A stretch of DNA of 60,146 nt, taken from NCBI GenBank assembly GCA_947629265.1, contig CANRCZ010000004.1, forward strand, positions 1 through 60,146. The letters run 5' to 3'. Each line of letters begins with the position of its first letter. The first letter of the stretch is position 1. This document shows, piece after piece, positions 250 through 21,640 of this stretch. Source of the DNA: an uncultured Bacilli bacterium (lineage in GTDB: Bacteria > Bacillota_I > Bacilli_A > RF39 > UBA660). The notes below the pieces were generated by a model, which was given only the letters and a program-made list of their open reading frames with translations, ran no database searches and was not told where the DNA came from. A program made the translations under genes and the position numbers.

Positions 250-259
250 CTTAAACGAG

Positions 260-823: not shown

Positions 824-831
824 CTTAAACG

Positions 832-951: not shown

Positions 952-980
952 ATAATACCATAAAAAAGTTGCTTAGTCAA
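952..980 (-). promoter_or_regulatory. Second copy of the convergent consensus promoter (candidate antisense RNA)
   Basis: On the minus strand: TTGACT (975-980), a 17-nt spacer identical to the first copy, then TATTAT (952-957). A transcript from here would end at the 832-862 hairpin, giving roughly 85-110 nt. Confidence 0.55.
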
Positions 981-1124
981 CTTTTTTATAATGCTACTCG
1001 TTATACATTTTCAACCAGGATTATTTATTACTCGCACCACCTGGAAGCGAGAAACATTTTCACACTTTTATATATACAATACAAATATACCATAATTGAT
1101 ATATTAAATCAATACTTTTGATAG

Positions 1125-1943: not shown

Positions 1944-2011
1944 TTTGGATTTATCCCTTTCTTTATCATCATTTTAGCATTTATTAGTTAAAATTTCAAA
2001 TATTTAACAAC

Positions 2012-2034
2012 TAAAAAAGGATCCTAAGATCCTT
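2012..2034 (-). terminator. Rho-independent terminator overlapping the stop codon of the Cys-rich gene
   Basis: The minus strand reads AAAGGATC-TTAG-GATCCTTT followed by further T residues, giving an 8-bp stem. The TAG stop lies in the loop. Confidence 0.7.
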
Positions 2035-5000: not shown

Positions 5001-5176
5001 CAGAGTGTTGATGTAGTGGTCCAATTAGGACATATACTAGAACTTCCGGGAGCTGACATACCAGTTCCGTTACCACTAGCACCAGGACGACCAGTTGTTG
5101 CCCTTACTCCAGTTACATTAAATAACAATGTTAATAAAATACATATAATTGATATTAATAAACTATTCTTCTTCAT
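2024..5176 (-). CDS. Secreted Cys-rich protein (1050 aa), family unknown
   Basis: N-terminal signal peptide MKKNSLLISIICILLTLLFNVTGVRA. I counted about 44 Cys by hand, with a dense cluster around aa 725-885 containing repeated C..G.KYCGKDLTD..-type motifs. A Gly-rich linker (PGSGPGTTGGDPGNGNGGNN) precedes a C-terminal domain starting IIYRVIDLEDPFPGKSGDGRDPGFNW. There is no LPXTG motif or C-terminal transmembrane segment. Confidence 0.85.
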   Translation of the reverse strand: MKKNSLLISIICILLTLLFNVTGVRATTGRPGASGNGTGMSAPGSSSICPNWTTTSTLCVYNNKNHASVRFTLMRYDPSKSGNNKYTQVGKSVYFMSNTSYSIDEVKYLDKNGNVKTDKNIVSEKRLINGKDPDSGKIWYASGHNINPDGIQSHFVTKNGHLSQNSLDLFQRMKIKKSENFPVPKDDKISELSAFLINEVAGQECSVSFGSDGSSEEKCKDIKRRYRIVVEPVYSFWTGPKDNKIVYYTAKAIAASGKDLTNGDRWCEIANLLYLEKKDDKFGGFTAGKSYGSSTTCNQGGTHDNLTGNAKSSRNALKKFKNGQGYNIIKFWDDDDIPTPKVCKYNDTDYFKKNRSGSSTPTSKKGSGPNGENCCDLDYIAPNQSKTNLENYIAEYKKLNPGKSMSKSKFKKYFNEIHPECVKPDPPAPVEKVADCNASSETIYDQGAGASTLIASTIQERGTTSVNGSTSKYLRKNVGSYGSISCSEKVTLTLPNKYMNNVYRGSKLEWPTFENSKRSNTYPLTLNGSATCVATIDYSEIVDDNTDPCYSVYKCHCDRWGCSYCCSKKIYWDNVHSDIRNTQSQIKYYSSHPQELYDLKGDFYVNYSDKKYGTKQKLTRYYNGYDNKNYTMDKIKFDDDQSLTSNSFKITQVVKYKIPQNFYRYVVKDNNTGTNISTSNKPTGSNYIDVGYGNLPIADDAAQGEYTYGIQYSNVGGFSNKQFAKNKLVSYTCKYKIDNVQVPTCSCDDPSTANYGKDLTDCLTGGCDNKKYTCLQAKKKFCNIAPCECPEGTKYCGKDLTDYVAKGKTCSQAQAQYCGTDLKACPSGTDFQGQALLTPTCESNYSCKMLKCNVYACPKNTTNSGQKINTLIASYIAKNNVTFSDTVLKKVQNLYCNTSDCDPSKDPDCPGSGPGTTGGDPGNGNGGNNIIYRVIDLEDPFPGKSGDGRDPGFNWDDAETVRNYITNNRRVETNKIYNKNNVMYHFKLTTKTIKEIRKYNKSHDYADFNLTCKAKGGRNCISSFVHNTSYGLQGDSKCYSTGSFSTCKGS

Positions 5177-5235
5177 TTATATCACCACTGTATACTTTCT
5201 ATCTATATCTATAAACATTTTACTATATTTTTAAA

Positions 5236-5263
5236 ATAAAAAAAAGATTTTTTTATCTTTTTT
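5236..5263. terminator. Weak AT-rich hairpin between the array and the Cys-rich gene (possible leaky terminator)
   Basis: AAAAGAT-TTTTTT-ATCTTTT flanked by A and T runs, with only one G:C pair in the stem. Confidence 0.3.
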
Positions 5264-5315
5264 CATAATTTTTTTGATTTTATTTTATAATATAACTATT
5301 TTTAAGCTTTTTATA

Positions 5316-6383
5316 CTATAAATATTTTAATAATTTTTTCATTTCTTTTTTCTTATTATTGATTAATGATACCTCTTCTTGAGTAAAATTATTTTGATTT
5401 ACTACCTTTTCTTTTTCCATAAAAGTTAAAGTATCCCAAATAATTACATAGCTACCGATTAACTCTCTTCTTTGATATAATGTAGAATTCAAATCGATTA
5501 ATTTGTTTTGATAAAATTTTAAACTTATTAAAATACAGTCTTTGATATCTTTTTCATTAAATTGGTATTTACTTATTTTTTCAATTCTTTTTAAACTATT
5601 TTTTTCAAATGCAACGTCTAACTTTTGTAATTCTTTAATAGCTTGTAAATATGCTGATATAGCCCTTTTAAACTCTTCTTTTTCTTGTTTTAAATTATTA
5701 TTTATGATAGCTTTTACAATAATATCAACTATCTTATCATTATCTAAGGTATCTAAATCATTTAGTTTTTGTATGGTGTCATTATATATTTTATCTAACC
5801 AGCTATTTCGAGTACTAACATTTTGTTTAAAACATGCAAATTGAACGATCTCTTTTATATCGTCATCAAGGTTTAAATCTTCAAAACCTAAATATTTTAA
5901 AATTTGTTGTTTAGATATATTATTACTTGATAATTTAGATGATACTTTGATATTCTTGATAGTTTCTTTAGCTTTATTATACCCTACTTGGTATTTTGGA
6001 TCATTATTTAAAACATATATTATTTTTTCTTTATTATTGGCCCAAAATTGTTGAATGGTACTACCATTTTTAAATTTATTTTTTAAATCGTTTTTTTGAG
6101 GTAGATAACCACTATTTAATAGATTAATGTATTCATCTATCTTTTCATTATATGAGGTAGTTCTTGATTTTTTATTTCTGATTATCTCTTTAGCAGTTTC
6201 ATATCCTACCTCATATTTGGGGTTATTAAATAATTCATTTATTATTTTATCTTTATTGTTTGACCAAAATTGTTGAATGATATTACCATTTTTAAACTTG
6301 GTTTTTACGTCACAACTTTTGGGTATATAACCAGTATTTAATAGATCGATATATTCTTCTATTTTAGCATCTATATTTTTCAT
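5316..6383 (-). CDS. Array paralog 9 (355 aa): 2 repeats plus the most diverged C-terminal module
   Basis: Repeat cores EEYIDLLNTGYIPKS and DEYINLLNSGYLPQK. Shine-Dalgarno GGAGGT lies 4 nt upstream of the ATG. No signal peptide. Confidence 0.9.
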   Translation of the reverse strand: MKNIDAKIEEYIDLLNTGYIPKSCDVKTKFKNGNIIQQFWSNNKDKIINELFNNPKYEVGYETAKEIIRNKKSRTTSYNEKIDEYINLLNSGYLPQKNDLKNKFKNGSTIQQFWANNKEKIIYVLNNDPKYQVGYNKAKETIKNIKVSSKLSSNNISKQQILKYLGFEDLNLDDDIKEIVQFACFKQNVSTRNSWLDKIYNDTIQKLNDLDTLDNDKIVDIIVKAIINNNLKQEKEEFKRAISAYLQAIKELQKLDVAFEKNSLKRIEKISKYQFNEKDIKDCILISLKFYQNKLIDLNSTLYQRRELIGSYVIIWDTLTFMEKEKVVNQNNFTQEEVSLINNKKKEMKKLLKYL

Positions 6384-6393
6384 GGTTACCTCC

Positions 6394-7479
6394 TTACATC
6401 ATTTTTTTTAATACTTTGATTTCTTCTTGTTTTTCATTAATTAATGATATTTCTTCTATAGTAAAATTATTTTGTTTTATTATATTTTCTTTTTCTAAAT
6501 CAGTTAATTCATCCCAATCGATAATGTAACTACTGATTAATTTTCTTCTTTTATATAGATCAGTTGTTGGTTCGATCAATTTTTCTTGATTAAATTCTAA
6601 GCTTATCAAAACACATTCTTCAATATCAAATTCATCAAAATTATATTTTTTGATTTTTTCAAATTTTTTTTGGTTATCTTCTTCAAAGGCAATATCTAGT
6701 TTTTGTAATTCTTTAACTTTGTTTAAATAAGACAAGATAGCATCTTTAAATTCTTTTCTTTCTTCTTTTTCTAGACAATTAGTGATAATATCATAACTGA
6801 TAATATCGGCAATTTTAGCTTCATCTAAAGTATCTAAGATATCTAATTTTTTTAAGGTATTGATATATGTCTCTTTGATCCACTTATTTTGTTTACTGAC
6901 ATGTTGGTTAAAGCATTCGTTTTTAATAATACTTTTTAAGGAATGATGTGGTCCTTGTTTGATTTCTATACCTAAGTATTTTAAGATTTGATCTTTAGCG
7001 ATTTTAGTATTATTAATAGAGCTGTAGCTTACCTTTATTTTAGCTAAGGTATCTTTAGCGATATCGTAACCTTTTTGATATTTAGGATTATTATATAGTT
7101 CGTAAACTATCTTTTCTTTATTGTTTAACCAAAAATATTTGATTTTATCACCATTAGTGAAATAATTTACTTTATCGATAACTTTTGGTACGTAACCACT
7201 ATTCATTAGTTCAATATATTCATCTACTTTTTTTAAGTATTCGATCTGTCTTCTAGGTTTAATTTTAACAGATTGAACGATTTCTTTAGCGGTGTCATAG
7301 CCTACTTTATATTTTGGATCGTTATTTAATTTATTGATAATTCTTTCTTTATTGTTTGCCCAAAAATGATTAACTGATTCGCCATTTTTAAAGACGATCT
7401 CTCTATCTTTATGTCTTGGAATATAACCACTATTTAATAGTTCGATATATTCGTCTACTTTGATATATTTTTCTTGCAT
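6394..7479 (-). CDS. Array paralog 8 (361 aa): 2 repeats plus C-terminal module
   Basis: Repeat cores DEYIELLNSGYIPRH and DEYIELMNSGYVPKV. The spacer to the upstream gene is 12 nt and contains AGAGGC. Confidence 0.9.
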   Translation of the reverse strand: MQEKYIKVDEYIELLNSGYIPRHKDREIVFKNGESVNHFWANNKERIINKLNNDPKYKVGYDTAKEIVQSVKIKPRRQIEYLKKVDEYIELMNSGYVPKVIDKVNYFTNGDKIKYFWLNNKEKIVYELYNNPKYQKGYDIAKDTLAKIKVSYSSINNTKIAKDQILKYLGIEIKQGPHHSLKSIIKNECFNQHVSKQNKWIKETYINTLKKLDILDTLDEAKIADIISYDIITNCLEKEERKEFKDAILSYLNKVKELQKLDIAFEEDNQKKFEKIKKYNFDEFDIEECVLISLEFNQEKLIEPTTDLYKRRKLISSYIIDWDELTDLEKENIIKQNNFTIEEISLINEKQEEIKVLKKMM

Positions 7480-7491
7480 ACTAACGCCTCT

Positions 7492-9528
7492 TTATATTAG
7501 TTTTTTTAATACTTTGATTTCTTCTTGTTTTTCATTAATTAATGATATTTCGTTTTCTGTAAAATTGTTTTGTTTTATAATACCATCTTTTTCTTCAGTT
7601 GTAAATTCATCCCAGTCGATAATGTAACTACTGATTAGTTTTCTTCTTTTATATAAATCCGTTCTTGGTTCGATAAATTTAGCTTGATCAAATTCTAAGC
7701 TTATCAAAACACATTCTTCGATATCAAATTCATCAAAATTATATCCTTTGATTTTTTCGCTTCTTTTTTCATTATCTTCTTCAAAAGCAACGTCTAGTTT
7801 TTGTAATTCTTTAACTTTTTCTAAGTAGGATAAAATAGCCTTTTTAAATTCTTCGCGTTCTTCTTTTTCTAGGCAGTTTTCGATGATTTCACGGCTGACA
7901 ATATTAGCGATTTTATCCTCATCTAAAGTAATCAATTTATCTAATTTATCTAAAGTATCTTGGTACGCTTCTTTTATCCATGTATTTTGTCTACTTACAT
8001 GTTGGTTAAAGCAGGCACTTTTAATGATATCTTTTATTGGATAGTAAATTTCTTTCTCTAATTCAATACCTAAATAGTTTAGAATTTGTTTTTTAGATAT
8101 TTTTACCTTTTTTGGTTTATTTGATACTTTAGTTTCAACTTGATTTATCATTTTGTTTAATGTCATTTTAGCGGTTTCATAACCTGTATTATAATTTGGA
8201 TCGTTATTTAATTTATAGATGATCTTATTTTTATTGACTGACCAAAAGCGATTGATAGCTTCACCATCTTTAAATTTAGTTTCATAGTCACAATATCTTG
8301 GAATATAACCTTTATTTAATAATTCAATATATTCACTTAATTTTTTTTCAAACAAAATGTTACTGACCTCTTTTGGTTTTAATGGTTCTAATATATCTTG
8401 AGCTGTTTCATACCCTACTTGGTATTTAGGATCGCTAATGAATTTATCGATTATTTTAGCTTTATTATTTGACCAAAAATTATTAATAAAATCACCATTT
8501 TTAAACTTGATATTTTGGTCACAATTTTTTGGAATATAACCATTATTTACTAATTCGATATATTCATCGATTTTTTGTTCAAAGATAATTTCTCTTGCAT
8601 TTTGTAGTGATAGTTGATTAATTATGTTTAAAGCTGTTTCATAACCTACTTGATATTTGGGGTTATTATTAAATTCACTGATGATTTGATATTTATACCT
8701 TGTCCAAAAATGTTTAATTTCACTACCATTTTGAAATTTAGTTACAGTATCATAAGCTTTGGGTAGATAGCCAATATTCATTAGTTCGATATATTCATCT
8801 ATATGCATCTTAATTTCTATTTGTTTTGGTTTTTCATTTAAAAATCTAATGACGGTTTTTTTAGCAGTTTCATAGCCTACTGCATATTTTAGATCATTAT
8901 TTAAAAGATCGATTATCTTATCTTTATTATTTTTCCAAAAACGATTAATAGCTTTGCCATCTTGAAATTTAGTTTCTAGGTCAAGGTATTTAGGTTGATA
9001 ACCTTTATTTAATAGCTCGATATAATAACTTAATTTCATTGCAAAGGTAATGTTATCTTTTTTATTTTTTAATTCTTTTAGTAAGTTTTTAGCGGTATCA
9101 TAGCCTACATCATATTTAGGATTACTGTTTAGTTCTCTAGTGATTTTATCTTTATTGATTGCCCAAAAGTGACTAATGATTTCACCATTTTGAAATTTAG
9201 CTTCAGGATCATTTTTTTTAGGTATATAGCCATGATTTAGTAATTCGATATATTCTTCTATAAGCATCCTCATTTTGATTTGTCTTGGTGTTTCTTTCGC
9301 TAAGTTAATAGCGTTTTTTTTAGCAGTTTCATAACCTACTTGATATTTGGGTTCGCTATTTAGGATATAGATGATCTTATTTTTATTGGTTGGCCAAAAA
9401 TGGTTGATACCATCACCAGTTGTAAAACTAGTTTCATAATCATAATATTTTGGCTTATAACCACTATTTAATAATTCAATATATTCGTCAATTTTTTGGC
9501 GTGTTATAATTCTACTTTGACCTGGCAT
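7492..9528 (-). CDS. Array paralog 7 (678 aa): 6 repeats plus C-terminal module
   Basis: N-terminus MPGQSRIITRQK is shared with paralog 6. There are six xEYIELLNxGYxPK cores, and the spacer carries GAGGTGAT. Confidence 0.9.
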   Translation of the reverse strand: MPGQSRIITRQKIDEYIELLNSGYKPKYYDYETSFTTGDGINHFWPTNKNKIIYILNSEPKYQVGYETAKKNAINLAKETPRQIKMRMLIEEYIELLNHGYIPKKNDPEAKFQNGEIISHFWAINKDKITRELNSNPKYDVGYDTAKNLLKELKNKKDNITFAMKLSYYIELLNKGYQPKYLDLETKFQDGKAINRFWKNNKDKIIDLLNNDLKYAVGYETAKKTVIRFLNEKPKQIEIKMHIDEYIELMNIGYLPKAYDTVTKFQNGSEIKHFWTRYKYQIISEFNNNPKYQVGYETALNIINQLSLQNAREIIFEQKIDEYIELVNNGYIPKNCDQNIKFKNGDFINNFWSNNKAKIIDKFISDPKYQVGYETAQDILEPLKPKEVSNILFEKKLSEYIELLNKGYIPRYCDYETKFKDGEAINRFWSVNKNKIIYKLNNDPNYNTGYETAKMTLNKMINQVETKVSNKPKKVKISKKQILNYLGIELEKEIYYPIKDIIKSACFNQHVSRQNTWIKEAYQDTLDKLDKLITLDEDKIANIVSREIIENCLEKEEREEFKKAILSYLEKVKELQKLDVAFEEDNEKRSEKIKGYNFDEFDIEECVLISLEFDQAKFIEPRTDLYKRRKLISSYIIDWDEFTTEEKDGIIKQNNFTENEISLINEKQEEIKVLKKLI

Positions 9529-9541
9529 AATTAATCACCTC

Positions 9542-11119
9542 TTATCTAAGTTTTTTTAATATTTTTATCTCTTCTTGTTTTTTATCAATTAATGCAATTT
9601 CTTCTATTGTAAAGTTATTTTGTTTGATGATTTCTTCTTTTTCTTCAGTTGTAAATTCATCCCAATCGATAATGTAACTACTGATTAGTTTTCTTCTATT
9701 ATATAAGTCTGTTCTTGGTTCGATCAATTTAGCTTGATTAAATTCTAAGCTTATTAAAACACATTCTTCGATATCGTATTCATCAAAATTATATTCTTTG
9801 ATTTTTTCAATTCTGTTTTCAGTATTCGCTTCAAAGGCAACGTCTAGTTTTTGTAGTTCTTTAACTTTTTCTAGATATAATAAGATAGCTTGTTTAAATT
9901 CTTCGCGTTCTTCTTTTTCTAGACAGTTTTCGATGATTGCATTTGTTATGATATCGATAATCAGATTTTCATCTAAAGTATCTAATTTATCTAGTTTATT
10001 TAAAGTATTATAGTATGCTTCTTTTATCCAGGCATTTTGATTACTGACACATTTGTTAAAGCAGGCAATTTTAATAATATCATTTAATGGATAATAAATT
10101 TCTTTTTCTACTTTAATACCTAAGTAATTTAAAATTTGTATTTTGGATATTTTTAATTTTTTAACTTTTTTTGATTTTTTCTTTTTAGATTTACTTATAG
10201 TCATATTTATCATATCTTTAGCAGTTTCATAACCCATCCCATATTTTGGATTATTATTTAATTCACTGATGATTTCATTTTTATGTTTTATCCAAAATTT
10301 ATTAATTGTATCGCCATTTTTAAACTTGATATTTAGTTCAACTCTCATTGGCACGTAACCATGGTTTAATAACTCGATATATTCGGCTATTCTTCTTGAA
10401 AGTTTAATTTCAATCGATGTTTTAGTTGCAAGTTGATTAATTATGTTTTTAGCTTGTTCATAACCTACCTCATATTTTGGATCGTTATTTAATTTATCGA
10501 TGATTTTAGTTTTATTATTATTCCAAAATTGATTGATTAAATCACCACTTGTAAATTTAGTTTCTAAGTCACAATATTTTGGTATATATCCATTATTTAA
10601 TAATTCAATGTATTCATCTAGGTTTTTTAAAAATTTGTCTTTCCTTAATACTCTTGTTTCAAAGCGTTTAATCATATCTTTAGCGGTTTCATAGCCTACC
10701 TCATACTTTGAATTATTATTTAATTCACTGATAATTTCATTTTTATGATTTGACCAAAATTGGTTAATAAAACCGCCATTTTTAAACTTAACATTGTGTT
10801 CAACGTACTTTGGTTCATAACCATTATTTAGTAGTTCAATATATTCATTTATCTTCATCTTAATTTCTGTCTGTTTTGGTTTTTCACTTAGAAATCTAGT
10901 GATAATTTCTTTAGCGGTGTCATAGCCTATATCATACTTTGAATTATTATTTAATTCACTGATGATTTCATTTTTATGGTTTGACCAAAATTGGTTAATT
11001 AAGTCACCATTTTTAAACTTAATCTTTTGTTCAAAGTAATTTGGTTCATAACCATTATTTAATAATTCAATATATTCTTCCATTTTTTGGCGGGTTATAA
11101 TTCTACTTTGACCTGGCAT
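9542..11119 (-). CDS. Array paralog 6 (525 aa): 4 repeats plus C-terminal module
   Basis: Four repeat cores. A K-rich linker (KSKKKKSKKVKKLK) precedes the C-terminal module, and the spacer carries GAGGTGAT. Confidence 0.9.
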   Translation of the reverse strand: MPGQSRIITRQKMEEYIELLNNGYEPNYFEQKIKFKNGDLINQFWSNHKNEIISELNNNSKYDIGYDTAKEIITRFLSEKPKQTEIKMKINEYIELLNNGYEPKYVEHNVKFKNGGFINQFWSNHKNEIISELNNNSKYEVGYETAKDMIKRFETRVLRKDKFLKNLDEYIELLNNGYIPKYCDLETKFTSGDLINQFWNNNKTKIIDKLNNDPKYEVGYEQAKNIINQLATKTSIEIKLSRRIAEYIELLNHGYVPMRVELNIKFKNGDTINKFWIKHKNEIISELNNNPKYGMGYETAKDMINMTISKSKKKKSKKVKKLKISKIQILNYLGIKVEKEIYYPLNDIIKIACFNKCVSNQNAWIKEAYYNTLNKLDKLDTLDENLIIDIITNAIIENCLEKEEREEFKQAILLYLEKVKELQKLDVAFEANTENRIEKIKEYNFDEYDIEECVLISLEFNQAKLIEPRTDLYNRRKLISSYIIDWDEFTTEEKEEIIKQNNFTIEEIALIDKKQEEIKILKKLR

Positions 11120-11132
11120 AACAAATCACCTC

Positions 11133-12941
11133 TTATCTAAGTTTTTTTAATACTTTTATCTCCTCTTGTTTTTCATTAATTAAGGCAATTTCTTCTATCG
11201 TAAAGTTATTTTGTTTGATGATTTCTTCTTTTTCTTCAAGTGTAAATTCATTCCAATCGATAATGTAACTACTGATTAGTTTTCTTCTATTATATAGATT
11301 GTTTGTTGGTTCGATTATTTTAGCTTGATTAAACTCTAAGCTTATTAAAACGCATTCTTCGATATCAAATTCATCAAAATTATATTTTTTGATTTTTTCG
11401 ATTCTGTTTTGGTTGTCTTCTTCAAAGGCAACGTCTAGTTTTTGTAATTCTTTAACTTTTTCTAGATATAATAAAATAGTTTGTTTAAATTCTTCACGTT
11501 CTTCTTTTTCTAGACAGTTTTCGATGATTTCACGACTGATAATATCAACAATTTTAGCCTCATCTAAAGTATTTAATTTATCTAGTTTATTTAAAGTGCT
11601 TTGATACGCTTCTTTTATCCACCTATTTTGCTTACTGACACATTTGTTAAAGCAGGCAATCTTAATAATATCTTCTACTGAATTATCAGTTTCTTTTTTT
11701 AGTTCGATACCTAAATATTTTAGGATTTGTCTTTTAGATATTTTTAATTTGTTTGGTTCAGATGCTTCTTTCTTTTTAGAATTACTTATAACTTTTTCTA
11801 TCATATCTTTAGCAGTGTCATACCCTACTATATACTTTGGATCGTTATTTAAAAGATCGATAATTTTAGCTTTATTGGTTTGCCAAAAATAATTGATACC
11901 ATCACCATTTTCAAATTTAGTTTCTAAGTCACAATATTTTGGTTCATAGCCAAGATTTAATAACTCAATATATTCAGTGATCTTCTTTAAAAATTTAGCC
12001 TTTCTTAACGTCTCTGTTTCAACTTTTTTAATCATTTCTTTAGCGGTTTCATAGCCTACTTGGTATTTTGGATCATTATTTAAAAGATTGATGATCTTAT
12101 CTTTATTGACTGGCCAAAATTGATTGATTAAATCACCATTTTGAAATGTAGTTTTATGTTCATAATATCTTGGAATATAGCCAGTATTTAATAACTCGAT
12201 ATATTCATATATTTTCTTAAAAAAATTAACTTTTCTTAATGTTTCTATTTCAACTTGTTTTACTATTTCTTTAGCCTTTTCATAACCTACGGCGTATTTT
12301 AAATCGTTATTTAAGGTATCGATGATTTTAGCTTTATTGACTCGCCAAAAATGATTAATAAATTCACCATTCGTAAATTTAGTTTCTAAGTCACAATATT
12401 TTGGTTCATAACCGCTATTTAATAACTCGATATATTCTTTCAATTTTTGTGAAAAAATGTCCTTCTTTGGTATTTTCATTTCAACTTGTTTTATTATTTC
12501 TTTAGCTTGTTCATACCCTATCTCATATTTTTGATTGTTATTTAATTCACTAACGATTTTATCTTTATTATTAATCCAAAATTGATTAATAAATTCACCA
12601 TTTTGAAATGTAGTCTTATAATCACAATGTTTTGGAATATAACCACTGTTTACTAGGTCGATATATTCTTCTATCCGCAACCTAAATTCTTTTTGGGATT
12701 GGGTTTCGTTTTGAAATTTAATAGCGGTCCTTTTAGCAGTTTCATAGCCTTTCTTGTATTTTAAATCATTATTTAAGATATCGATGATTTTGTTTTTATT
12801 GCTTCCCCAAAAACGGTTGATTGTATCCCCATTTGTAAATTTGGTTTTAAAATCACAACTTTTTGGGATATAGCCATTATTTAGTAGGTCGATATATTCA
12901 TCTACTTTTTGAAGATACACAATTCTACTTTGACCTCGCAT
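11133..12941 (-). CDS. Array paralog 5 (602 aa): 5 repeats plus C-terminal module
   Basis: N-terminus MRGQSRIVYLQK, five repeat cores, and a spacer carrying GAGGTGAT. Confidence 0.9.
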   Translation of the reverse strand: MRGQSRIVYLQKVDEYIDLLNNGYIPKSCDFKTKFTNGDTINRFWGSNKNKIIDILNNDLKYKKGYETAKRTAIKFQNETQSQKEFRLRIEEYIDLVNSGYIPKHCDYKTTFQNGEFINQFWINNKDKIVSELNNNQKYEIGYEQAKEIIKQVEMKIPKKDIFSQKLKEYIELLNSGYEPKYCDLETKFTNGEFINHFWRVNKAKIIDTLNNDLKYAVGYEKAKEIVKQVEIETLRKVNFFKKIYEYIELLNTGYIPRYYEHKTTFQNGDLINQFWPVNKDKIINLLNNDPKYQVGYETAKEMIKKVETETLRKAKFLKKITEYIELLNLGYEPKYCDLETKFENGDGINYFWQTNKAKIIDLLNNDPKYIVGYDTAKDMIEKVISNSKKKEASEPNKLKISKRQILKYLGIELKKETDNSVEDIIKIACFNKCVSKQNRWIKEAYQSTLNKLDKLNTLDEAKIVDIISREIIENCLEKEEREEFKQTILLYLEKVKELQKLDVAFEEDNQNRIEKIKKYNFDEFDIEECVLISLEFNQAKIIEPTNNLYNRRKLISSYIIDWNEFTLEEKEEIIKQNNFTIEEIALINEKQEEIKVLKKLR

Positions 12942-12954
12942 AACAAATCACCTC

Positions 12955-14508
12955 TTATCTAAGTTTTTTTAATACTTTTATCTCTTCTTGTTTTTCATTA
13001 ATTAATGATATTTCATCTATCGTAAAGTTATTTTGTTTGATGATTTCTTCTTTTTCTAAATCAGTTAATTCATTCCAATCGATAATGTAACTACTGATTA
13101 GTTTTCTTCTTTTTGATAAGTCAGTTGTTGGTTCAATAAATTTAGCTTGATTAAATTCTAAGCTTATTAAAACACATTCTTCGATATCAAATTCATCAAA
13201 ATTATATTTTTTAATCTTTTCGCTTCTTTTTTGATTATCATCTTCAAAGGCAACGTCTAGTTTTTGTAGTTCTTTAACTTTTTCTAAATAAGATAAAACA
13301 GCCTTTTTAAATTCTTCTCGTTCTTCTTTTTCTAGGCAATTATCGATGATTTCGTGAGTGATAATACTAGATATCTTATCCTCATCTAAGATATCTAGCT
13401 TATCTAATTTATTTAAAGTATCTTGGTACGCTTCTTTTATCCAAGCATTTTGGGCACTGACATTTTGTTTAAAACAGGCAATTTTAATAATATCTTCTAC
13501 TAAATTATCAGTTTCTTTTTTTAATTCAATGCCTAAGTATTTTAAAATTTGTATTTTAGATATTTTTAATTTGTTTGGTTCATTTAATTTTTTCTTTTGA
13601 ACCATCATTTTTGCTGTTTCATAATCCTCTTGATATTTTGGATCGTTATTTAATTTAATAACTATCTCATTTCGATGATTAAACCAGAAATCACCTATTT
13701 TTTTACCATCAGCGAAATGATTTACATTATCTTTGGTTTTAGGTATATAACCTTTATTCATTAGTTCGATATACTCATCCATTTTTTGATTGATAGAAAC
13801 TTTTTGAGGATTTTCATTTCTTAGTTTATCTAAAGTATCTTTAGCTTGTTCATAACCTGTTTGATACTTAACAGCATTATCTAAAGTAGCGATTATTTTA
13901 TCTTTATGACTTTCCCAAAACCTATTTATTTTTTTACCATCAGTGAAACTATTTACATTATCGTTCGTTTTTGGAATGTAACCATTATTTAATAGTTCAA
14001 TATATTCTTTAATCCTCTCAGTTTGTGGTGTTTCTGTTAGTATTTTATCTTCAACTTTTTCTGCAACTATTTGAACGATTTCTTTAGCGGTTTCATAACC
14101 TATTTTGTATTTTGGATCATTATTTAAAATGTCGATGATTTTATCTTTATGATGAGCCCAAAAAGTATTAATCAAATCACCATTTGTAAATTTAGTTTTA
14201 ATGTCTCTACTTTTTGGCATGTAACCACGATTTAATAACTCGATATATTCAGTGATTTTCATCTTAATTTTCATTTGTTTTGGAGTTTCATTTTCTAAGT
14301 TAAAAGCTATCTCTTTAGCCTTATCGTAACCTACCTCATATTTTGAATCGCTATTTAAGATATTAATTATTTGATATTTATGTCTATACCAAAAATAATT
14401 GATAGCTTCACCATCTTTAAATGTTGATAAATTATCATAAGTTTTAGGGATATATCCATTATTTACTAATTCGATATATTCATATATTTTCGTATATTTT
14501 TTCTCCAT
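12955..14508 (-). CDS. Array paralog 4 (517 aa): 4 repeats plus C-terminal module
   Basis: Four repeat cores. The spacer Shine-Dalgarno is GAGATGAT. Confidence 0.9.
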   Translation of the reverse strand: MEKKYTKIYEYIELVNNGYIPKTYDNLSTFKDGEAINYFWYRHKYQIINILNSDSKYEVGYDKAKEIAFNLENETPKQMKIKMKITEYIELLNRGYMPKSRDIKTKFTNGDLINTFWAHHKDKIIDILNNDPKYKIGYETAKEIVQIVAEKVEDKILTETPQTERIKEYIELLNNGYIPKTNDNVNSFTDGKKINRFWESHKDKIIATLDNAVKYQTGYEQAKDTLDKLRNENPQKVSINQKMDEYIELMNKGYIPKTKDNVNHFADGKKIGDFWFNHRNEIVIKLNNDPKYQEDYETAKMMVQKKKLNEPNKLKISKIQILKYLGIELKKETDNLVEDIIKIACFKQNVSAQNAWIKEAYQDTLNKLDKLDILDEDKISSIITHEIIDNCLEKEEREEFKKAVLSYLEKVKELQKLDVAFEDDNQKRSEKIKKYNFDEFDIEECVLISLEFNQAKFIEPTTDLSKRRKLISSYIIDWNELTDLEKEEIIKQNNFTIDEISLINEKQEEIKVLKKLR

Positions 14509-14521
14509 AATTAATCATCTC

Positions 14522-17500
14522 TTATCTCATTTTTTTTAATATCTTTATTTCTTCTTGTTTTTCATTAATTAGTGATATTTCATCTACAGTAAGGTTGTTT
14601 TGGTTGATGATAGTTTGTTTTTCTAAATCAGTTAATTCGTTCCAATCGATGATACAGCTACTGATTAGTTTTCTTCTATTATATAGATCAGTTGCTAGTT
14701 CGATAAATTTAGTTTGATTAAATTCTAAACTTATTAAAACACATTCTTCAATATCGTATTCATCAAACTTATATTTTCTTATTTTAAGTTTTTTTAGTTG
14801 TCCGTTTTCTTCAAAAGCGACGTCTAGCTTTTGTAATTCTTTAACTTTTTCTAAATAGGATAAAACAGCTTTTTTAAATTCTTCACGTTCTTCTTTTTCT
14901 AAGTGGTTTTTGATAATTTCACACGTCATGATATCGACAATAAGATTTTCATCTAAGGTATCTAAGATATCTAGAGCATCTAAGGTATTACAATATGCTT
15001 TTTTTATTTGCTCACTTTGCATACTAACATGTTCGTTAAAGCAAGCATTTTGAATGATACTTTTTATTGAGTCATCATTGGTATCTTCAATTTTTAAGTA
15101 TTTTAAGATTTGATCTTTACTAATAACTTTTGTATAAGTTAGATTTTCTTTTTGTTTATTGATTTCTTTTGTCATTTGTTTATCGATTATAATAGCTTTT
15201 TTAGCGGTTTCATAACCCTCTTGATATTTTAAATTGTTATTTAAGTTATCGATAATTTTAGTTTTATAACTCATCCAAAAGAAATTAATAGCTTCACCGT
15301 TACTAAAGTGATTTATCTCATCTTTATATTTAGGTTGATAACCTGTATTTAATAGATCAATATATTCTTTGATTTTATCTAAAATAGTCAATTTTTCTAA
15401 TTTTTGTTTTTCTATTTTAGTTAAGTTTTCTTTAGCGGTTTCGTAACCTATTTGATATTTTAAATCACTATTTAAAGTAGCGATGATTCTATCTTTATAA
15501 CATGTCCAAAAACTATTAATAGCTTCACCATTACTAAAGTGATTTATTTCATCTTTATATTTAGGTATATAACCATGATTTAATAATTCAATATATTCTT
15601 TAATTTTATCTAAAACAGTCATTTTATGTAATTTTTTATTTTCTAGTTTGGTTATAGTTTTTTTAGCTTTTTCATAACCCACTACATATTTTAAATTATT
15701 ATTTAAAGTAGCGATGATTTTATCTTGATGAATTTTCCAAAATAAGCCAATGGCTTCACCGTTACTAAAACGATTTCTTACATCATTATATCTAGGTATA
15801 TAACCATGATTTAATAAATTGATATACTCATCTACTTTTTCATAAATAATAGTTTCTTTAGGTCTTTGATTTTCTAATTTTGATAGCGTTTCTTTGGCTA
15901 ATTCATAACCTACTTGGTATTTTAAATTACTATTTAAAGTAGATAAAATCTGATCTTTATGATTAAACCAGAATTTATTGATAACCTCACCATTTTTAAA
16001 TTTGGTTGTATTATCATAAATTTTAGGTTCATAGCCAACATTTACTAAATCGATATATTCTTCAATTCTTTCGGTTAATGATATTTCTTTTGGTGTTCTA
16101 TTTTCATATTTTTTAGCGGTTTCTTTTGCTAATTCATAACCTACTTGATATTTTGGATCACTATTTAAAATAGCGATGATCCTTTTTTTATTAGTTGGCC
16201 AAAAGTGATTAATAAAACCACCAACTTTAAATTCATTAATCGTATCATCACATAAGGGTGTATAGCCAGTATTTAATAATTCGATATATTCACTTATTTT
16301 TTGAGTATAGATATCACTATTTGATGGGCTATTTACTAATTTATTAATTATTTTTTTAACCTTATCATAACCCTCTTGATATTTTAAATCGTTATTTAAT
16401 TTATCGATTATTTTGTCTTTATTATTAATCCAAAATTGATTGATAGCGCTACCGTTTTTAAATGTTGTTACGTTATCATAAGTTTTAGGTATGTAGCCAC
16501 TATTTACTAATTCGATATATTCATATATCTTCATCTTAATTTCCAGTTGTTTTGGAGTTTCTTTAGCTAATTTAGTAGTGGTTTCTTTAGCGGTTTCATA
16601 ACCTGTTTGGTATTTTAAATCACTATTTAAGATACTGATTATCAAATCTTTATGGTTAAACCAAAACTGATTGATAGCTTTACCATCTTGAAATTTTGTT
16701 ATAGGATCGCTATGTCTTGGGGTGTAACCAGTATTTAATAGTTCAATATATTCAGCTATTTTGTTTAAAAGTTTAATTTTTCTTGTATTTTCTTTTTTTA
16801 TTTTTTTGGCTGTCATTTTTCTTGGTTTATCTTCAAATTTTTTAATTATCTCTTTAGCTTGTTCATATCCTACTTGGTATTTGGGATCATTATTTAAGGT
16901 AGCGATTACTCTACCTTTATGATTTCGCCAAAAAAAGTTAATTAGTTCACCTGATGAAAAACTTATACTATTATCTTGGGTTTTAGGAATATAACCAGTA
17001 TTTATTAGCTCGATATATTCAGTGATCTGTCTTGAAAGTTTAATTTCTTTTGGTGCTTTAGTTGCAAGCTGGTTAATTATATCTTTAGCGGTTTCATAGC
17101 CTACCTCATATTTTGGATCGTTATTTAAAGTAGTAATTATTCGCTCTTTTTGGTTTTGCCAAAATTGATTAATTAAATCACCATTTTGAAATTTAACTTT
17201 ATTTTCATTGGAATTTGGAATATAACCATGGTTTAATAACTCGATATATTCATTAATTCTTCTTGAAAGTTTAATTTCAATCGATGTTTTAGTTGCAAGT
17301 TGGCTAATTATCTCTTTAGCCTTTTCATATCCTATTTGGTAGTTTGGATCATTATTTAAGGCATTTATTACTTTATCTTTATGATTTGGCCAAAAGAAAT
17401 TGATACTCTCGCCATTTTTAAATTTAGTTTGATAATCTAGTTTGGTTGGTATGTAGCCATTATTTAGTAATTCAATAAATTCTTGTAATTTATGTCTTAC

Positions 17501-17716
17501 GGTATTTTTATTGATTGCTGCTTTAGCTTGTTCATACCCTATTTGATATCTTAAATCATTATTTAAAGTATAAATTATTTTATCTTTATTAGTTGTCCAA
17601 AAACGATTAATTGAACTACCATCACTAAATTTAGTTAAAATATCATTAGATTTTGGGATATAACCATTATTTAATAGTTCGATATATTCAGCGATTCTAA
17701 TATGTATGTTTGACAT
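14522..17716 (-). CDS. Array paralog 3 (1064 aa): 11 repeats plus C-terminal module
   Basis: Eleven repeat cores. Repeats 10 and 11 are near-identical (KYKDEINHFSNGEAIN). The start codon lies inside the 3' end of paralog 2. Confidence 0.9.
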   Translation of the reverse strand: MSNIHIRIAEYIELLNNGYIPKSNDILTKFSDGSSINRFWTTNKDKIIYTLNNDLRYQIGYEQAKAAINKNTVRHKLQEFIELLNNGYIPTKLDYQTKFKNGESINFFWPNHKDKVINALNNDPNYQIGYEKAKEIISQLATKTSIEIKLSRRINEYIELLNHGYIPNSNENKVKFQNGDLINQFWQNQKERIITTLNNDPKYEVGYETAKDIINQLATKAPKEIKLSRQITEYIELINTGYIPKTQDNSISFSSGELINFFWRNHKGRVIATLNNDPKYQVGYEQAKEIIKKFEDKPRKMTAKKIKKENTRKIKLLNKIAEYIELLNTGYTPRHSDPITKFQDGKAINQFWFNHKDLIISILNSDLKYQTGYETAKETTTKLAKETPKQLEIKMKIYEYIELVNSGYIPKTYDNVTTFKNGSAINQFWINNKDKIIDKLNNDLKYQEGYDKVKKIINKLVNSPSNSDIYTQKISEYIELLNTGYTPLCDDTINEFKVGGFINHFWPTNKKRIIAILNSDPKYQVGYELAKETAKKYENRTPKEISLTERIEEYIDLVNVGYEPKIYDNTTKFKNGEVINKFWFNHKDQILSTLNSNLKYQVGYELAKETLSKLENQRPKETIIYEKVDEYINLLNHGYIPRYNDVRNRFSNGEAIGLFWKIHQDKIIATLNNNLKYVVGYEKAKKTITKLENKKLHKMTVLDKIKEYIELLNHGYIPKYKDEINHFSNGEAINSFWTCYKDRIIATLNSDLKYQIGYETAKENLTKIEKQKLEKLTILDKIKEYIDLLNTGYQPKYKDEINHFSNGEAINFFWMSYKTKIIDNLNNNLKYQEGYETAKKAIIIDKQMTKEINKQKENLTYTKVISKDQILKYLKIEDTNDDSIKSIIQNACFNEHVSMQSEQIKKAYCNTLDALDILDTLDENLIVDIMTCEIIKNHLEKEEREEFKKAVLSYLEKVKELQKLDVAFEENGQLKKLKIRKYKFDEYDIEECVLISLEFNQTKFIELATDLYNRRKLISSCIIDWNELTDLEKQTIINQNNLTVDEISLINEKQEEIKILKKMR

Positions 17717-19697
17717 AGTTATCTCCTCTTATTTGTTTTTTTAATGTTTTAATTTCTTCTTGTTTTTCATTAATTAATGATATTTCTTCTAAAGTAAAAT
17801 TGTTTTGTTTGATAATAGCTTCTTTTTCTTCAGTTGTAAATTCGTTCCAATCGATGATATAATTACTGATTAATTTTCTTCTATTATATAGATCGTTTTG
17901 TGGTTCAATTAGTTTAGATTGATTAAATTCTAAGTTTATTAAAACACATTCTTCAATATCAAATTTATTAAATTGATATTTTTTTATTTTGGCTACTCTT
18001 TTTTGATTGTCTTCTTCAAAGGCAATATCTAGTTTTTGTAGTTTTTTAACTTTTTCTAGATAGAATAAAATAGCCTTTTTAAATTCTTCACGTTCTTCTT
18101 TTTCTAAGTGATTTTCGATGATTGCATTTGTTATGATATCGATAATCATATTTTCATCTAAGATATCTAATTTATCTAGTTCGTTTAAAGCCTTATAGTA
18201 AGCTTTTTCTATTTGTTTATTTTGGTTACTAACATGGTTGTTAAAGCAGACACTTTGGATGATACTTTTTATTGAGCTATTATTTTTTTCATCTACTATT
18301 ATTCCTAAGTATTTTAAGATTTGATCTTTAGATATTTTAGGTTCATTAGTAGTATTATTTAAAATAGCTTTTTTAGCAGTTTCATAGCCTACTTGGTATT
18401 TAGGATCGTTATTTAATTTATCGATTACTTTATCTTTATGATTTGACCAAAATCTACTAATAGCCTCACCATTTTGAAACTTTGTCTTATAATCATTGTA
18501 TTTTGGCATATAGCCACAATTTAATAATTCGATATATTCGTCAACTTTTTTTAACGTTTTAATCTCGACTGACGTCTTAGTTGCAAGTTGACAAATAGTA
18601 TTTTTAGCTTTTTCATAACCTATTTGATATTTTGGATCATTATTTAAAGCTGTGATTACTTTATCTTTATGGTTTAACCAGAAAGTACCGATTAAATCAC
18701 CATTTTGAAATTTATTTTGATAATCTAGTTGAACTGGTATATAACCATTATTTAATAATTCGATATATTCTTGTAATTTATAGCTTACTATATTTTGGTT
18801 AATTACCTCTTTAGCGGTTTCATATCCTACTTGGTATTTGGGTTCGCTATTTAATTTACCGATTACTTTATCTTTATGATTAGCCCAGAATTTACCGATA
18901 AGCTCACCATTTTTAAACTTTATCTTATAATCATTATATTTTGGCATATAGCCACAATTTAATAACTCGATATATTCGTCAACTTTGTTTGAAATTTTAA
19001 TCTCGACTGACGTTTTAGTTGAAAGTTGTTTAATAGTATTTTTAGCTCTTTCATAACCTGTTTGATATCTAGGATCATTATTTAAAGTATCGATTATTTT
19101 ATTTTTATGACTATGCCAAAAAAGATTGATAACCTCACCATTTTGAAATTTAATTTGATTTTCATTAACTACTGGTATGTAACCATTATTTAGTAGCTCA
19201 ATGTATTCATCGATTTGCCTTAAAATTTGAATTTCTTTAGGTCGTTTAGTTGTTAATTTATTAATTATCTCTTTAGCTTGTTCATAACCTACTTGGTATT
19301 TAGAATCATTATTTAAGGTATCGATTATTTTATTTTTTTGATTTGACCAAAAATGATTGATATCTTCACCATTTGTAAATTTAGTTTCTGAATCACAAAT
19401 TTTTGGTAGGTAACCATTATTTAATAATTCGATATATTCATCTATCTGTTTTAAAAGTTTAAGATCTTTTGGTTTTTTAGTTTTTAATTTATTGATAGTA
19501 TCTTTAGCCTTTTCATAACCTACTTGGTATTTTGGATCACTATTTAAGGTATCGATTATTCTATTTTTTTGATTTGGCCAAAAATGATTGATACCCTCAC
19601 CAGTTGTAAATTTAATTTGGCTTTCATTAACTACTGGTATGTAACCATTATTTAGTAGTTCGATATATTCATCTATTTTAAGATATATATTTAACAT
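17697..19697 (-). CDS. Array paralog 2 (666 aa): 6 repeats plus C-terminal module with an 11-aa read-through tail
   Basis: Six repeat cores. The usual ..LKK-x-x-stop ending is replaced by LKKQIRGDNYVKHTY, which overlaps the Shine-Dalgarno and start codon of paralog 3. Confidence 0.9.
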   Translation of the reverse strand: MLNIYLKIDEYIELLNNGYIPVVNESQIKFTTGEGINHFWPNQKNRIIDTLNSDPKYQVGYEKAKDTINKLKTKKPKDLKLLKQIDEYIELLNNGYLPKICDSETKFTNGEDINHFWSNQKNKIIDTLNNDSKYQVGYEQAKEIINKLTTKRPKEIQILRQIDEYIELLNNGYIPVVNENQIKFQNGEVINLFWHSHKNKIIDTLNNDPRYQTGYERAKNTIKQLSTKTSVEIKISNKVDEYIELLNCGYMPKYNDYKIKFKNGELIGKFWANHKDKVIGKLNSEPKYQVGYETAKEVINQNIVSYKLQEYIELLNNGYIPVQLDYQNKFQNGDLIGTFWLNHKDKVITALNNDPKYQIGYEKAKNTICQLATKTSVEIKTLKKVDEYIELLNCGYMPKYNDYKTKFQNGEAISRFWSNHKDKVIDKLNNDPKYQVGYETAKKAILNNTTNEPKISKDQILKYLGIIVDEKNNSSIKSIIQSVCFNNHVSNQNKQIEKAYYKALNELDKLDILDENMIIDIITNAIIENHLEKEEREEFKKAILFYLEKVKKLQKLDIAFEEDNQKRVAKIKKYQFNKFDIEECVLINLEFNQSKLIEPQNDLYNRRKLISNYIIDWNEFTTEEKEAIIKQNNFTLEEISLINEKQEEIKTLKKQIRGDNYVKHTY

Positions 19698-19712
19698 AAT
19701 TATTCCCCCTTT

Positions 19713-21509
19713 TTATCTCATTTTTTTTAAGGTTTTAATTTCTTGTTGTTTTTCATTAATTAAGGCAATTTCTTCTAAAGTAAAGTTATTTTGTTTGATG
19801 ATAGCTTCTTTTTCTAAAGTAGTTAATTCGTTCCAATCGATGATACAGCTACTGATTAGTTTTCTTCTATTATATAAGTCAGTTTTTGGTTCGATAAGTT
19901 TAGATTGGTTAAATTCTAAGCTTATCAAAACACATTCTTCAATATCAAATTCATCAAATTGATATTTTCTAATTTTTTGTTTTTTAATATAGTTGTTATT
20001 TTCAAAAGCGATATCTAGTTTTTGTAGTTCTTTAACTTTTTGTAAGTATGCAAAAATAGCTTTTTTAAATTCTTCACGTTCTTCTTTTTCTAGACAGTTT
20101 TCAATAATTTCGTGAGTGATAATATCAGCGATTTTAGCTTCATCTAAAGTATCTAGTTTATCTAATTTTTTTAAGGTCTTACGATATGGTTCGTTCATCC
20201 ATTTATGTTGTTTACTGACATTTTGTTTAAAACATTCACCTTTAATAATACTTTTAATTGAATTATCGGTTTCTTTTTTTAGTTCGATACCTAAGTATTT
20301 TAAGATTTGATCTTTAGCGATCTTTTCTGTTTTATTAGTAGTTTTATATTCACCTTGTCTATTAGGTGAAATAGCCTCTTTAGCAGTTTCATAGCCTACT
20401 TGGTATTTTGGATCGTTATTTAATTTATCGATGATCTTATCTTTATTATTTCTCCAAAAATAATTGATAGCTTTACCATTTATAAGTTCAGTTTTAAAAT
20501 CAATACCTTTTATCATATAGCCATTATTTAATAGTTCGATATATTTTTCGATTTTAGCTTCTAATAAAATAGCATTCGCTTTTCTAGTTTTTAATTCTTC
20601 GATAATAGCTTTAGCTTTCTCATAACCTACTTGGTACTTTGGATCATTATCTAAAGCTATAATTACTCTATCTCTATGCGTTGTCCAAAAATAGCCTATA
20701 AAATCACCATTCGTAAACTTAGTTTCTAAATCACAATATTTTGGGATATAGCCATTATTTAATAGATTAATATAATCGTTTACTTTAGTTTCAAAGAAAA
20801 GGACACTCATATCTTTAGTTTTTAAGGTTTCTAAGGTTTCTTTAGCTTTATCATAACCTATCTTGTATTTAGGATTGCTATTAAATTCAGCGTATATTTT
20901 ATCCCTATTACGTTTTGACCAGAAAGTACTGATTAAATCACCATTTTTAAACTTGATATTTTGTTCTTTATATCTTGGTATATAACCTTGATTTAATAAC
21001 TCGATATATTCATCTACTTTTTGATCGAAGATTATATCTTTTACTTGTTTATCTTCTAATTGATTAATTATTTCTTTAGCGGTTTCATAACCTGTTTGAT
21101 ACTGTGGATCATTATCTAAAGCAGCGATTATCCTATCTTTTTGACTTGTCCAAAAATAATTGATAGTTTCACCAGTTGTAAATTTAGTTTCTAAATCACA
21201 ATGTTTTGGTAAGTAACCATTATTTAACAAATTAATATAATCTCTTACCTTAATTTCAAATAAAAGATTACTAGGTGTTTGTATTTTTAATTTTTCTAAG
21301 GTAGCTTTAGCTTGTTCATATCCTATCTTATATTTAGTATCACTATTAAATTTATCATATATTCTATCCTTATAATATGGCCAAAAGCGATTAATTGTCA
21401 CACCATTTGAAAATTTAGTTTTTGGATCATTTTTTTTAGGTATATAACCATTATTTAATAATTCAATATATTCATCCATTTCAACATCCGTCTTTTTCAT
21501 CTTTTCCAT
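19713..21509 (-). CDS. Array paralog 1 (598 aa): 5 repeats plus C-terminal module; first gene of the array
   Basis: Five repeat cores. AAGGGGG abuts the first ATG at 21509, so the ATG at 21500 (MKKTDVEMDEY...) may be the true start. Confidence 0.88.
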   Translation of the reverse strand: MEKMKKTDVEMDEYIELLNNGYIPKKNDPKTKFSNGVTINRFWPYYKDRIYDKFNSDTKYKIGYEQAKATLEKLKIQTPSNLLFEIKVRDYINLLNNGYLPKHCDLETKFTTGETINYFWTSQKDRIIAALDNDPQYQTGYETAKEIINQLEDKQVKDIIFDQKVDEYIELLNQGYIPRYKEQNIKFKNGDLISTFWSKRNRDKIYAEFNSNPKYKIGYDKAKETLETLKTKDMSVLFFETKVNDYINLLNNGYIPKYCDLETKFTNGDFIGYFWTTHRDRVIIALDNDPKYQVGYEKAKAIIEELKTRKANAILLEAKIEKYIELLNNGYMIKGIDFKTELINGKAINYFWRNNKDKIIDKLNNDPKYQVGYETAKEAISPNRQGEYKTTNKTEKIAKDQILKYLGIELKKETDNSIKSIIKGECFKQNVSKQHKWMNEPYRKTLKKLDKLDTLDEAKIADIITHEIIENCLEKEEREEFKKAIFAYLQKVKELQKLDIAFENNNYIKKQKIRKYQFDEFDIEECVLISLEFNQSKLIEPKTDLYNRRKLISSCIIDWNELTTLEKEAIIKQNNFTLEEIALINEKQQEIKTLKKMR

Positions 21510-21531: not shown

Positions 21532-21540
21532 AGTATAGCA
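21532..21540 (-). promoter_or_regulatory. Extended -10 element (TGcTATACT), candidate promoter of the array
   Basis: The minus strand reads ...TTTACAATTTTGTGCTATACTAACC... about 25 nt upstream of the AAGGGGG ribosome-binding site. The -35 element is weak. It lies just downstream of the ftsX terminator. Confidence 0.45.
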
Positions 21541-21590
21541 CAAAATTGTAAATTTTTCTATATAAAATCGTGATTTTTTTAATAAATATC

Positions 21591-21614
21591 AAAAAAAACT
21601 GCACTAAATGCAGT
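21591..21614 (-). terminator. Rho-independent terminator after ftsX
   Basis: The minus strand reads ACTGCA-TTTAG-TGCAGT followed by a run of 7-8 T. Confidence 0.65.
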
Positions 21615-21640
21615 TTAAAATGACAATATTGTCGATATTT

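Follow-up and report, generated by a model that had tools for sequence, protein, structure and literature searches.

Nine tandem paralogs with strings of a probable divergent helicase-associated unit and a novel C-terminal domain in an uncultured Bacilli bacterium

The open reading frame (ORF) at positions 14522–17716 on the minus strand of a 60,146-nucleotide (nt) stretch of DNA from an uncultured Bacilli bacterium (assembly GCA_947629265.1, contig CANRCZ010000004.1; this whole stretch is called the window below) encodes a protein of 1064 amino acids (aa); nine paralogs, all on this strand, lie at 5316–21509, and this ORF is the third of them. The nine proteins follow one plan: a short polar N-terminus, then 2–11 tandem units, and then a C-terminal domain (CTD) of ~215 aa. 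As judged by sequence comparison, the unit very probably constitutes a divergent subfamily of the helicase-associated (HA) domain (PF03457)—one that current Pfam and NCBIfam models miss. For the function of the proteins, we lean toward standalone arrays of divergent HA units that would act as multivalent DNA binders, with the CTD serving for self-association or recruitment.

The HA assignment is carried by intermediate proteins. An exhaustive profile search of 1.84 billion proteins with the unit alignment yields only 96 representatives at E ≤ 1e-3. Three of the weaker matches, P0054, P0082, and P0077, all feature ResIII and Helicase_C domains and score 72, 167, and 36 bits, respectively, against PF03457, the gathering score of which is 28.4 bits; the matches of the unit profile and of PF03457 fall on overlapping regions. 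Profile comparison with hhalign joins the window unit to the units of P0054/P0077 at a probability of 96.8% (P 3e-10) and to those of P0082 at 93.5% (P 2e-7). On the other side of the bridge, a classical HA profile composed of 34 units from six PF03457-annotated proteins is matched at 99.1% (P 5e-19) by the units of P0082, here over the full length, and at 85% (P 6e-6) by those of P0054/P0077. In addition, the protein P0057 is matched both by the unit profile (7e-12) and by the HA array of P0082 (3.5e-14). The register shared across these alignments comprises helix 1, G..P, (D/N)G..(L/I)(G/N).(F)W, and then (Q/N)(R/K). The sequence-only reading of this DNA had proposed the link to PF03457 and had paired GYxP with hG..vP, NG..I..FW with dG..LG.W, and NK with QR. 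All three pairings recur in the alignments, and the family link itself stands by way of the intermediates (93–97% to the window unit and, through the same residues, 85–99% to classical HA), but direct comparison with PF03457 or with the classical profile does not establish it. A fourth pairing, of the GY(E/D) cap with lGf.W, is backed by no alignment: the alignments end at column 46, and helix 3 differs.

The unit itself is well-defined. A motif scan counts 5, 6, 11, 4, 5, 4, 6, 2, and 2 units in paralogs 1–9, and a hidden Markov model (HMM) of the unit, run against the six-frame translation of the window, returns these nine ORFs alone, with identical counts. Both bear out the earlier count of 45 units in all, 11 of them in the ORF at 14522–17716. 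The unit period is mostly 77 aa with a range of 69–89, and Tandem Repeats Finder independently gives 231 nt. Per-column counts reproduce the earlier consensus column for column: I4, L6, N8, G10, Y11, G25, F31, W32, Y49, and Y53 are invariant, and Y3, P13, F22, I28, G52, A56, and K57 are at least 96% conserved. Lysine or arginine is conserved at columns 14, 21, 36, 38, 48, and 57. The highest entropy (>2.7 bits) is found in eleven columns—1, 9, 15, 16, 18, 19, 27, 30, 33, 41, and 61—which include the stretch from GYxP to F.NG and the residues flanking FW, the very patches that had been described as variable. The linker, which had been said to be absent in places, is present throughout: beyond the 62-aa core, it measures 15 aa in 30 of 36 cases (range 7–27) and carries a semi-conserved hydrophobic pattern of its own. 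Positive charge is located in these linkers, at about +2 each. Alongside the column entropy, a mean identity of 56% is reported between units. At the DNA level, units are 57–87% identical (mean 69%), the proportion of synonymous differences (pS) is near saturation with a mean of 0.53, and the proportion of nonsynonymous differences (pN) is 0 at the invariant residues. Recent duplication is hence not the source of the conserved pattern.

The AlphaFold2 model of a single unit, built with a 52-sequence unit alignment, has a mean pLDDT of 96.8 and a pTM of 0.81. It features helix 1 (residues 2–8), a β-hairpin (17–21 and 27–29), helix 2 (31–45), and helix 3 (54–61). The three helices that had been anticipated are thus present in the model, joined by a β-hairpin that the three-helix description leaves out. 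In the model of the whole paralog 8, with two units and the CTD (pLDDT 82), helix 1 reaches back into the linker, and the inter-unit residues 70–74 fall below a pLDDT of 50 (the linker below 50–60). In these models, each unit resembles a small domain that folds by itself, with a flexible connector to the next—beads on a string and not a stacked solenoid. The variable columns would sit on the first strand of the hairpin and on a helix 2 stripe with i, i+4, i+8 spacing (30, 33, 34, 37, and 41), as judged by the predicted secondary structure. This stripe would lie opposite to the core stripe of W32, I39, and L43, an arrangement that is compatible with a contiguous exposed patch; such placement is not specific, since the exposed residues of any small domain would vary likewise.

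Units of the same type occur C-terminally on enzymes of related Bacillota. ResIII/DEAD helicases with C-terminal arrays of the window type are P0014, P0015, P0019, P0024, P0028, P0035, P0041, and the protein encoded at L008:845-4864; ResIII/DEAD domains are found in 7 of 40 strong and 10 of 51 weak unit-profile matches, L008 being a further example. The helicase family and the C-terminal position of the array are identical in window-type and classical HA proteins. In PADLOC, unit-bearing helicases give partial matches to mREase_IV, PbeA, and REase_MTase_IIG—P0015 to the first two—and P0014 weakly matches a Cas3 model. The unit type is also fused to HNH_4 (P0050) and to Mrr_cat_2 together with a helicase (P0082). 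The HA array of P0082 follows a region matching the N-terminal positions 5–666 of a 1646-position model of a Type IIG restriction enzyme-methyltransferase, and it may replace the remaining part of that model, going by the sequence. The nine window proteins themselves are devoid of a helicase domain in Pfam and six-frame HMM checks.

Further segments of the relatives are unannotated. P0014, P0024, P0035, P0041, and the protein at L008:845-4864 have in common an N-terminal domain of ~550 aa ahead of ResIII/Helicase_C and the array, with the motif FDI..FNII.D..YYFFRAL ... RTDRER ... CISL(S/T)SN; in these helicases, PADLOC finds only a weak Cas3-like match, located in the helicase core. A second C-terminal tail of ~70 aa, with the motif ..P(I/L)(V/I)D..G....IF(F/Y)MS...M...Y.(I/L)(S/T)L(D/E)(E/T)LI..Y, follows the arrays of P0008, P0012, P0018, P0019, P0024, P0040, and P0041, proteins that do not carry the window CTD. 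The C-terminal end of one array protein (probably P0029) resembles the membrane domain of an ABC transporter and is a possible assembly chimera. P0039 shows no HNH domain by Pfam, and an HNH-like N-terminus appears only by reading of its sequence.

Relatives are few outside the exhaustive search. A word-indexed homolog search gives only 8 proteins, and the GTDB representative genomes give one weak locus; two scans of JGI metagenome contigs reveal none. IMG/VR, GenBank phages, and PLSDB plasmids likewise contain none, and because of this, an origin from a mobile element or phage is not supported.

The CTD is rare, occurring in only 13 proteins among 5.8 billion. It matches nothing in Pfam, NCBIfam, PADLOC, PHROG, or the PDB, and no catalytic-looking residues are conserved in it across lineages. 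The AlphaFold2 model of paralog 8 shows it as a ten-helix bundle at a pLDDT of ~85–93. Within the window, the CTDs are 52–84% identical, with pS of 0.29–0.62—no sign of recent homogenisation—and pN/pS of ~0.37. None of the nine genes is broken, and the paralogs are old and evolve under purifying selection.

Tandem sets with the same plan occur elsewhere. L004 (GCA_964438315.1, 22% GC; 173-6948) contains at least five tandem paralogs, with 2, 2, 4, and 8 window-type units and the CTD. L005–L007, from a spore-former of 32% GC (L005:6528-11539), comprise three tandem paralogs with 3, 3, and 2 units that belong to another HA-like subtype, again with the CTD. Compared with classical HA, the L005–L007 units reach 85% and units of the P0113/P0118 type 68%. 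Altogether, the CTD is found paired with HA-like units of three different subtypes. Because the plan of units plus CTD in tandem paralogs is kept while the unit subtype varies, these sets support the HA assignment independently. The occurrence of tandem HA-like units with the CTD in at least three distant Bacillota genomes points to a conserved, undescribed cellular role.

The reading of the arrays as multivalent DNA binders is favoured because HA domains are cited as DNA-binding and because the unit is fused to helicases, Mrr_cat_2, and HNH_4. By citation, HA domains were shown to bind DNA (Mills et al. 2013, as cited in PMC12191111); in PLD nucleases, they are one of the alternative C-terminal domains (PMC12191111), and they also occur on TniQ target selectors (10.1101/2025.07.27.667033). 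The unit type, which elsewhere sits C-terminally on restriction-like ResIII/DEAD helicases and on HNH proteins, would have been released from any enzyme at the window locus. In each unit, the contact with DNA would be made by the hairpin and by the beginning of helix 2, where the conserved N35, K36, and K38 would take the place of the Q-R of classical HA. Tandem units on basic flexible linkers would permit multivalent binding, and the CTD would mediate self-association or oligomerisation or recruit a partner. The paralogs would differ in valency and in the exposed residues of the hairpin and helix 2, giving them different DNA preferences. That the proteins bind DNA, by which surface, and what the CTD does are inferences; the anatomy of the array, the homology chain, the domain architectures, the predicted fold, and the purifying selection on all nine genes are what the analysis shows.

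A body of results weighs against this reading. On the side of sequence, PF03457 matches neither three full-length paralogs at E ≤ 1 nor any of 52 single units at E ≤ 10. The comparison of the unit alignment A1 with the classical HA profile by hhalign gives 0.3%, and that of an iterated 311-domain profile only 8.6% (P 0.004), though in the correct register. The homology alignments are restricted to columns 4–46, and helix 3 of the window unit (PKY.VGYE.AK) is without a classical HA counterpart. No PADLOC model matches the window proteins. On the side of structure, Foldseek with the single-unit model retrieves from the PDB four insignificant matches, with neither 2KTA nor a DNA-binding fold among them, and from BFVD nothing at E ≤ 0.001; the whole-protein model retrieves nothing from the PDB at E ≤ 0.001. 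The 62-aa cores carry next to no net charge (mean −0.36), and seven of the nine paralogs have an acidic CTD. On the side of context, no nucleic-acid enzyme adjoins the array among the neighbouring genes, and the genes around the sets of units plus CTD differ in each genome, with no conserved neighbourhood.

The charge and fold results would suit arrays that serve as protein-binding scaffolds or adaptors, for example docking on helicases or other partners, with the variable surface reflecting drift or diversity of partners. Cores that are not basic, an acidic CTD, and the lack of a DNA-binding fold in Foldseek all fit such a role, as does a pN/pS at the variable columns of ~1 or lower, which is expected for relaxed exposed residues. 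To our knowledge, no study has dissected what HA domains do in helicases. However, fusions of the unit type to helicases, HNH nucleases, and Mrr-type nucleases recur, and the conserved lysines and arginines together with the basic linkers fit contacts to a nucleic-acid backbone. Classical HA is also reported, in the citing literature, to bind DNA and to reside on PLD nucleases and TniQ target selectors. We regard the scaffold role as clearly less probable than DNA binding.

The failed direct comparisons would be explained if the resemblance to HA were convergent, the unit being an unrelated helical domain and the two families being bridged only through a short, compositionally similar segment (G..P....F.DG..IG.W). 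The window-to-intermediate alignments span only ~32–43 columns, and 2KTA—the only solved HA domain (Bacteroides vulgatus BVU_0683, residues 627–691)—is not retrieved by Foldseek, both of which fit convergence. We nevertheless consider convergence improbable. The P0082 units align with classical HA over the full length and with the window unit through the same residues; P0054 and P0077 exceed the Pfam HA threshold at the very place that the window profile matches; window-type and classical units share both the helicase family and the array position at the C-terminus; and the CTD is paired with three HA-like subtypes. By the gathering threshold of PF03457, the window proteins fall outside the Pfam family.

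The variability of the units raises the question of a recognition code, and an independent array allows for a comparison. L008 carries a young array of eight near-identical units (pS 0.22), the amino-acid changes of which hit columns that vary in the window as well—9, 12, 15, 18, 30, 33–35, 55, and 58 onward. Column variability in the two arrays is correlated (Spearman 0.49, P 6e-5). The changes are distributed over 18 of 62 columns, and column 15 holds five different residues among the eight units. At the variable columns, pN/pS is 0.9–1.3 in the window, where synonymous sites are saturated, and 0.74 in L008 for the variable set defined a priori; positive selection is not demonstrated at these columns by pN/pS in either array. 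Across all unit pairs, the identity of the hairpin does not follow that of the remaining unit (r = 0.09). Four units, par1_u4, par5_u3, par5_u5, and par6_u3, share the hairpin KYCDLETKF without change, the rest of these units being 53–71% identical, and this hairpin shows 0–2 synonymous differences in 10 codons versus 7–13 in 28–35 codons elsewhere in the unit. With numbers so small and codon bias so strong, this recurrence is inseparable from micro-conversion or codon bias.

A programmable code—each unit reading a single base, or a short word of DNA or RNA, by way of a few residues in the hairpin and helix 2, with a target length proportional to the 2–11 units—would account for the shared variable columns, the five residues at column 15, the uncoupled hairpin, its unchanged recurrence in four units of three paralogs, and the range of unit number, but it is very improbable given autonomous 77-aa domains on flexible low-confidence linkers in place of a continuous solenoid, about eleven highly variable columns in place of one to three, a pN/pS never above ~1.3 in the window and 0.74 in the a priori set of L008, and a recurring hairpin that is not distinguishable from micro-conversion or codon bias. 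The analogy to TALE, PPR, and Pumilio repeats that the sequence-only reading had drawn does not hold at the level of structure: repeats of 33–36 aa stacked into a solenoid are not what is observed, as the unit with its 77-aa period folds alone at a pLDDT of 96.8, joined by linkers of <50–60. Only slightly less doubtful is the looser idea that the HA-like unit is a reusable DNA- or RNA-reading module, in which hairpin and helix 2 residues set a preference for a short sequence or modification and strings of 2–11 units, whether on helicases, on nucleases, or in the standalone paralogs, specify composite targets. If true, bacteria would possess a family of nucleic-acid recognition arrays that work combinatorially and had so far gone unrecognised.

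A number of database matches were discarded. YozD, FtsK_gamma, Toprim, and CxC1, returned by Pfam and NCBIfam for paralogs and units, are summed low-complexity noise with no individual stretch being significant. A PDB sequence search with the unit profile returned COMMD1 at E 0.003 over only 27 residues, which was judged to be chance. PHROGs gave nothing meaningful for the window proteins.

The nine genes all lie on the minus strand, each with its units followed by the CTD. Paralog 1 (19713–21509; 598 aa, 5 units) is the first gene of the array, followed by paralog 2 (17697–19697; 666 aa, 6 units), paralog 3 (14522–17716; 1064 aa, 11 units), paralog 4 (12955–14508; 517 aa, 4 units), paralog 5 (11133–12941; 602 aa, 5 units), paralog 6 (9542–11119; 525 aa, 4 units), and paralog 7 (7492–9528; 678 aa, 6 units). 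Paralog 8 (6394–7479; 361 aa, 2 units) is the subject of the whole-protein model, and paralog 9 (5316–6383; 355 aa, 2 units) has the most divergent CTD, with 52–56% identity to the others. The repeat region of paralog 3 extends over 15185–17692 with a 231-nt period. Its 62-aa cores lie at 17507–17692, 17300–17485, 17069–17254, 16838–17023, 16571–16756, and 16340–16525 for units 1–6 and at 16109–16294, 15878–16063, 15647–15832, 15416–15601, and 15185–15370 for units 7–11. The CTD of this protein, an all-helical domain as in the other eight, occupies 14522–15184.

The array bears the marks of coordinated expression. Spacers of 10–15 nt are found for eight of the nine genes, the exception being an overlap of 20 nt between paralogs 2 and 3: paralog 2 has lost the usual ...LKKxR stop, and a 12-aa extension runs into the start of paralog 3 (17697–17716). 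The extension is not a sequencing error because P0005, from another assembly, has the same one. A Shine–Dalgarno sequence stands 5′ of every paralog, directly after the preceding stop codon. Upstream of paralog 1, a promoter-like site with an extended −10 element (TAGAAA, 17 nt, TGnTATACT) lies at 21532–21560 (minus strand), and a terminator-like hairpin after ftsX lies at 21596–21616 (minus strand); within the array, no terminator-like site was found on this strand. The tight packing, the Shine–Dalgarno sequences, the promoter-like site, and the lack of an internal terminator therefore make a single nine-gene operon likely at the sequence level. No signal peptide or transmembrane segment is found in any of the nine proteins, and the Kyte–Doolittle maximum over 19 residues is ≤1.06; secretion and membrane localisation were rejected on this basis, and by these sequence features, all nine proteins are cytoplasmic.

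The array is flanked by ordinary chromosomal genes, namely those for a release factor, ftsE, ftsX, a YitT-family protein, VanY, and a pseudouridine synthase, in a window with a GC content of ~27%. Directly 3′ of the array, 2024–5176 (minus strand) encodes a cysteine-rich 1050-aa protein with a signal peptide and repeated C..C..G.KYCGKDLTD-like motifs, for which Pfam gives no match at 1e-5. The region downstream of paralog 9 contains short AT-rich tandem repeats with periods of 22 and 26 (5247–5338, intergenic). Farther away, a 1980-aa ORF at 29675–35617 (minus strand) shows no Pfam family at E ≤ 1e-5, and two full-length T-box leaders lie at 49565–49742 and 39107–39287 (both minus strand; 111 and 103 bits); together with the GC content, these leaders mark the genome as that of a low-GC member of the Bacillota.

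Compared with the known systems, the locus is closest to the HA domain. With PF03457, the unit subfamily shares a short domain of ~65–77 aa that occurs in tandem and C-terminally on ResIII/DEAD superfamily-2 helicases, as well as the order of helix, G..P, (D/N)G loop, (L/I)(G/N).(F)W, and a basic QR or NK. Four differences set the window proteins apart: their unit escapes both the PF03457 HMM and the classical HA profile; the hairpin is 3–5 residues longer; helix 3 reads PKY.VGYE.AK in place of the classical G.LS.ER...L..LGF.W; and the units stand alone with a novel CTD in nine tandem paralogs and are not attached to a helicase. The window-type helicases (P0014, P0015, P0019, P0024, P0028, P0035, P0041, and L008:845-6311) carry the same unit subfamily (E 1e-22 to 1e-114) in 2–10 tandem copies but feature ResIII/DEAD and Helicase_C, in some cases with the ~550-aa N-terminal domain, and no window CTD. 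What is new here is thus an unrecognised HA subfamily, a standalone architecture, a novel CTD, and an expansion of tandem paralogs in a few Bacillota.

The HA domain is widespread in helicases, restriction-like nucleases, and transposon target selectors, yet barely studied, and the locus adds a further subfamily to it. As natural variants with 2–11 units that are free of any enzyme, the nine paralogs are a convenient system for identifying HA ligands and the residues that decide on them; were the units sequence-selective, they would provide a new modular DNA-binding scaffold. With TALE, PPR, and Pumilio proteins, the arrays share tandem repeats, a conserved scaffold, position-specific variability, and a variable repeat number. 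Those proteins consist of 33–36-aa repeats in a continuous superhelix with 1–3 specificity residues per repeat, whereas the window units are 77-aa domains on flexible linkers with ~11 variable columns and no sign of a code. Strings of independent small DNA-binding domains, for instance, zinc-finger or Myb-type arrays, offer the closer analogy.

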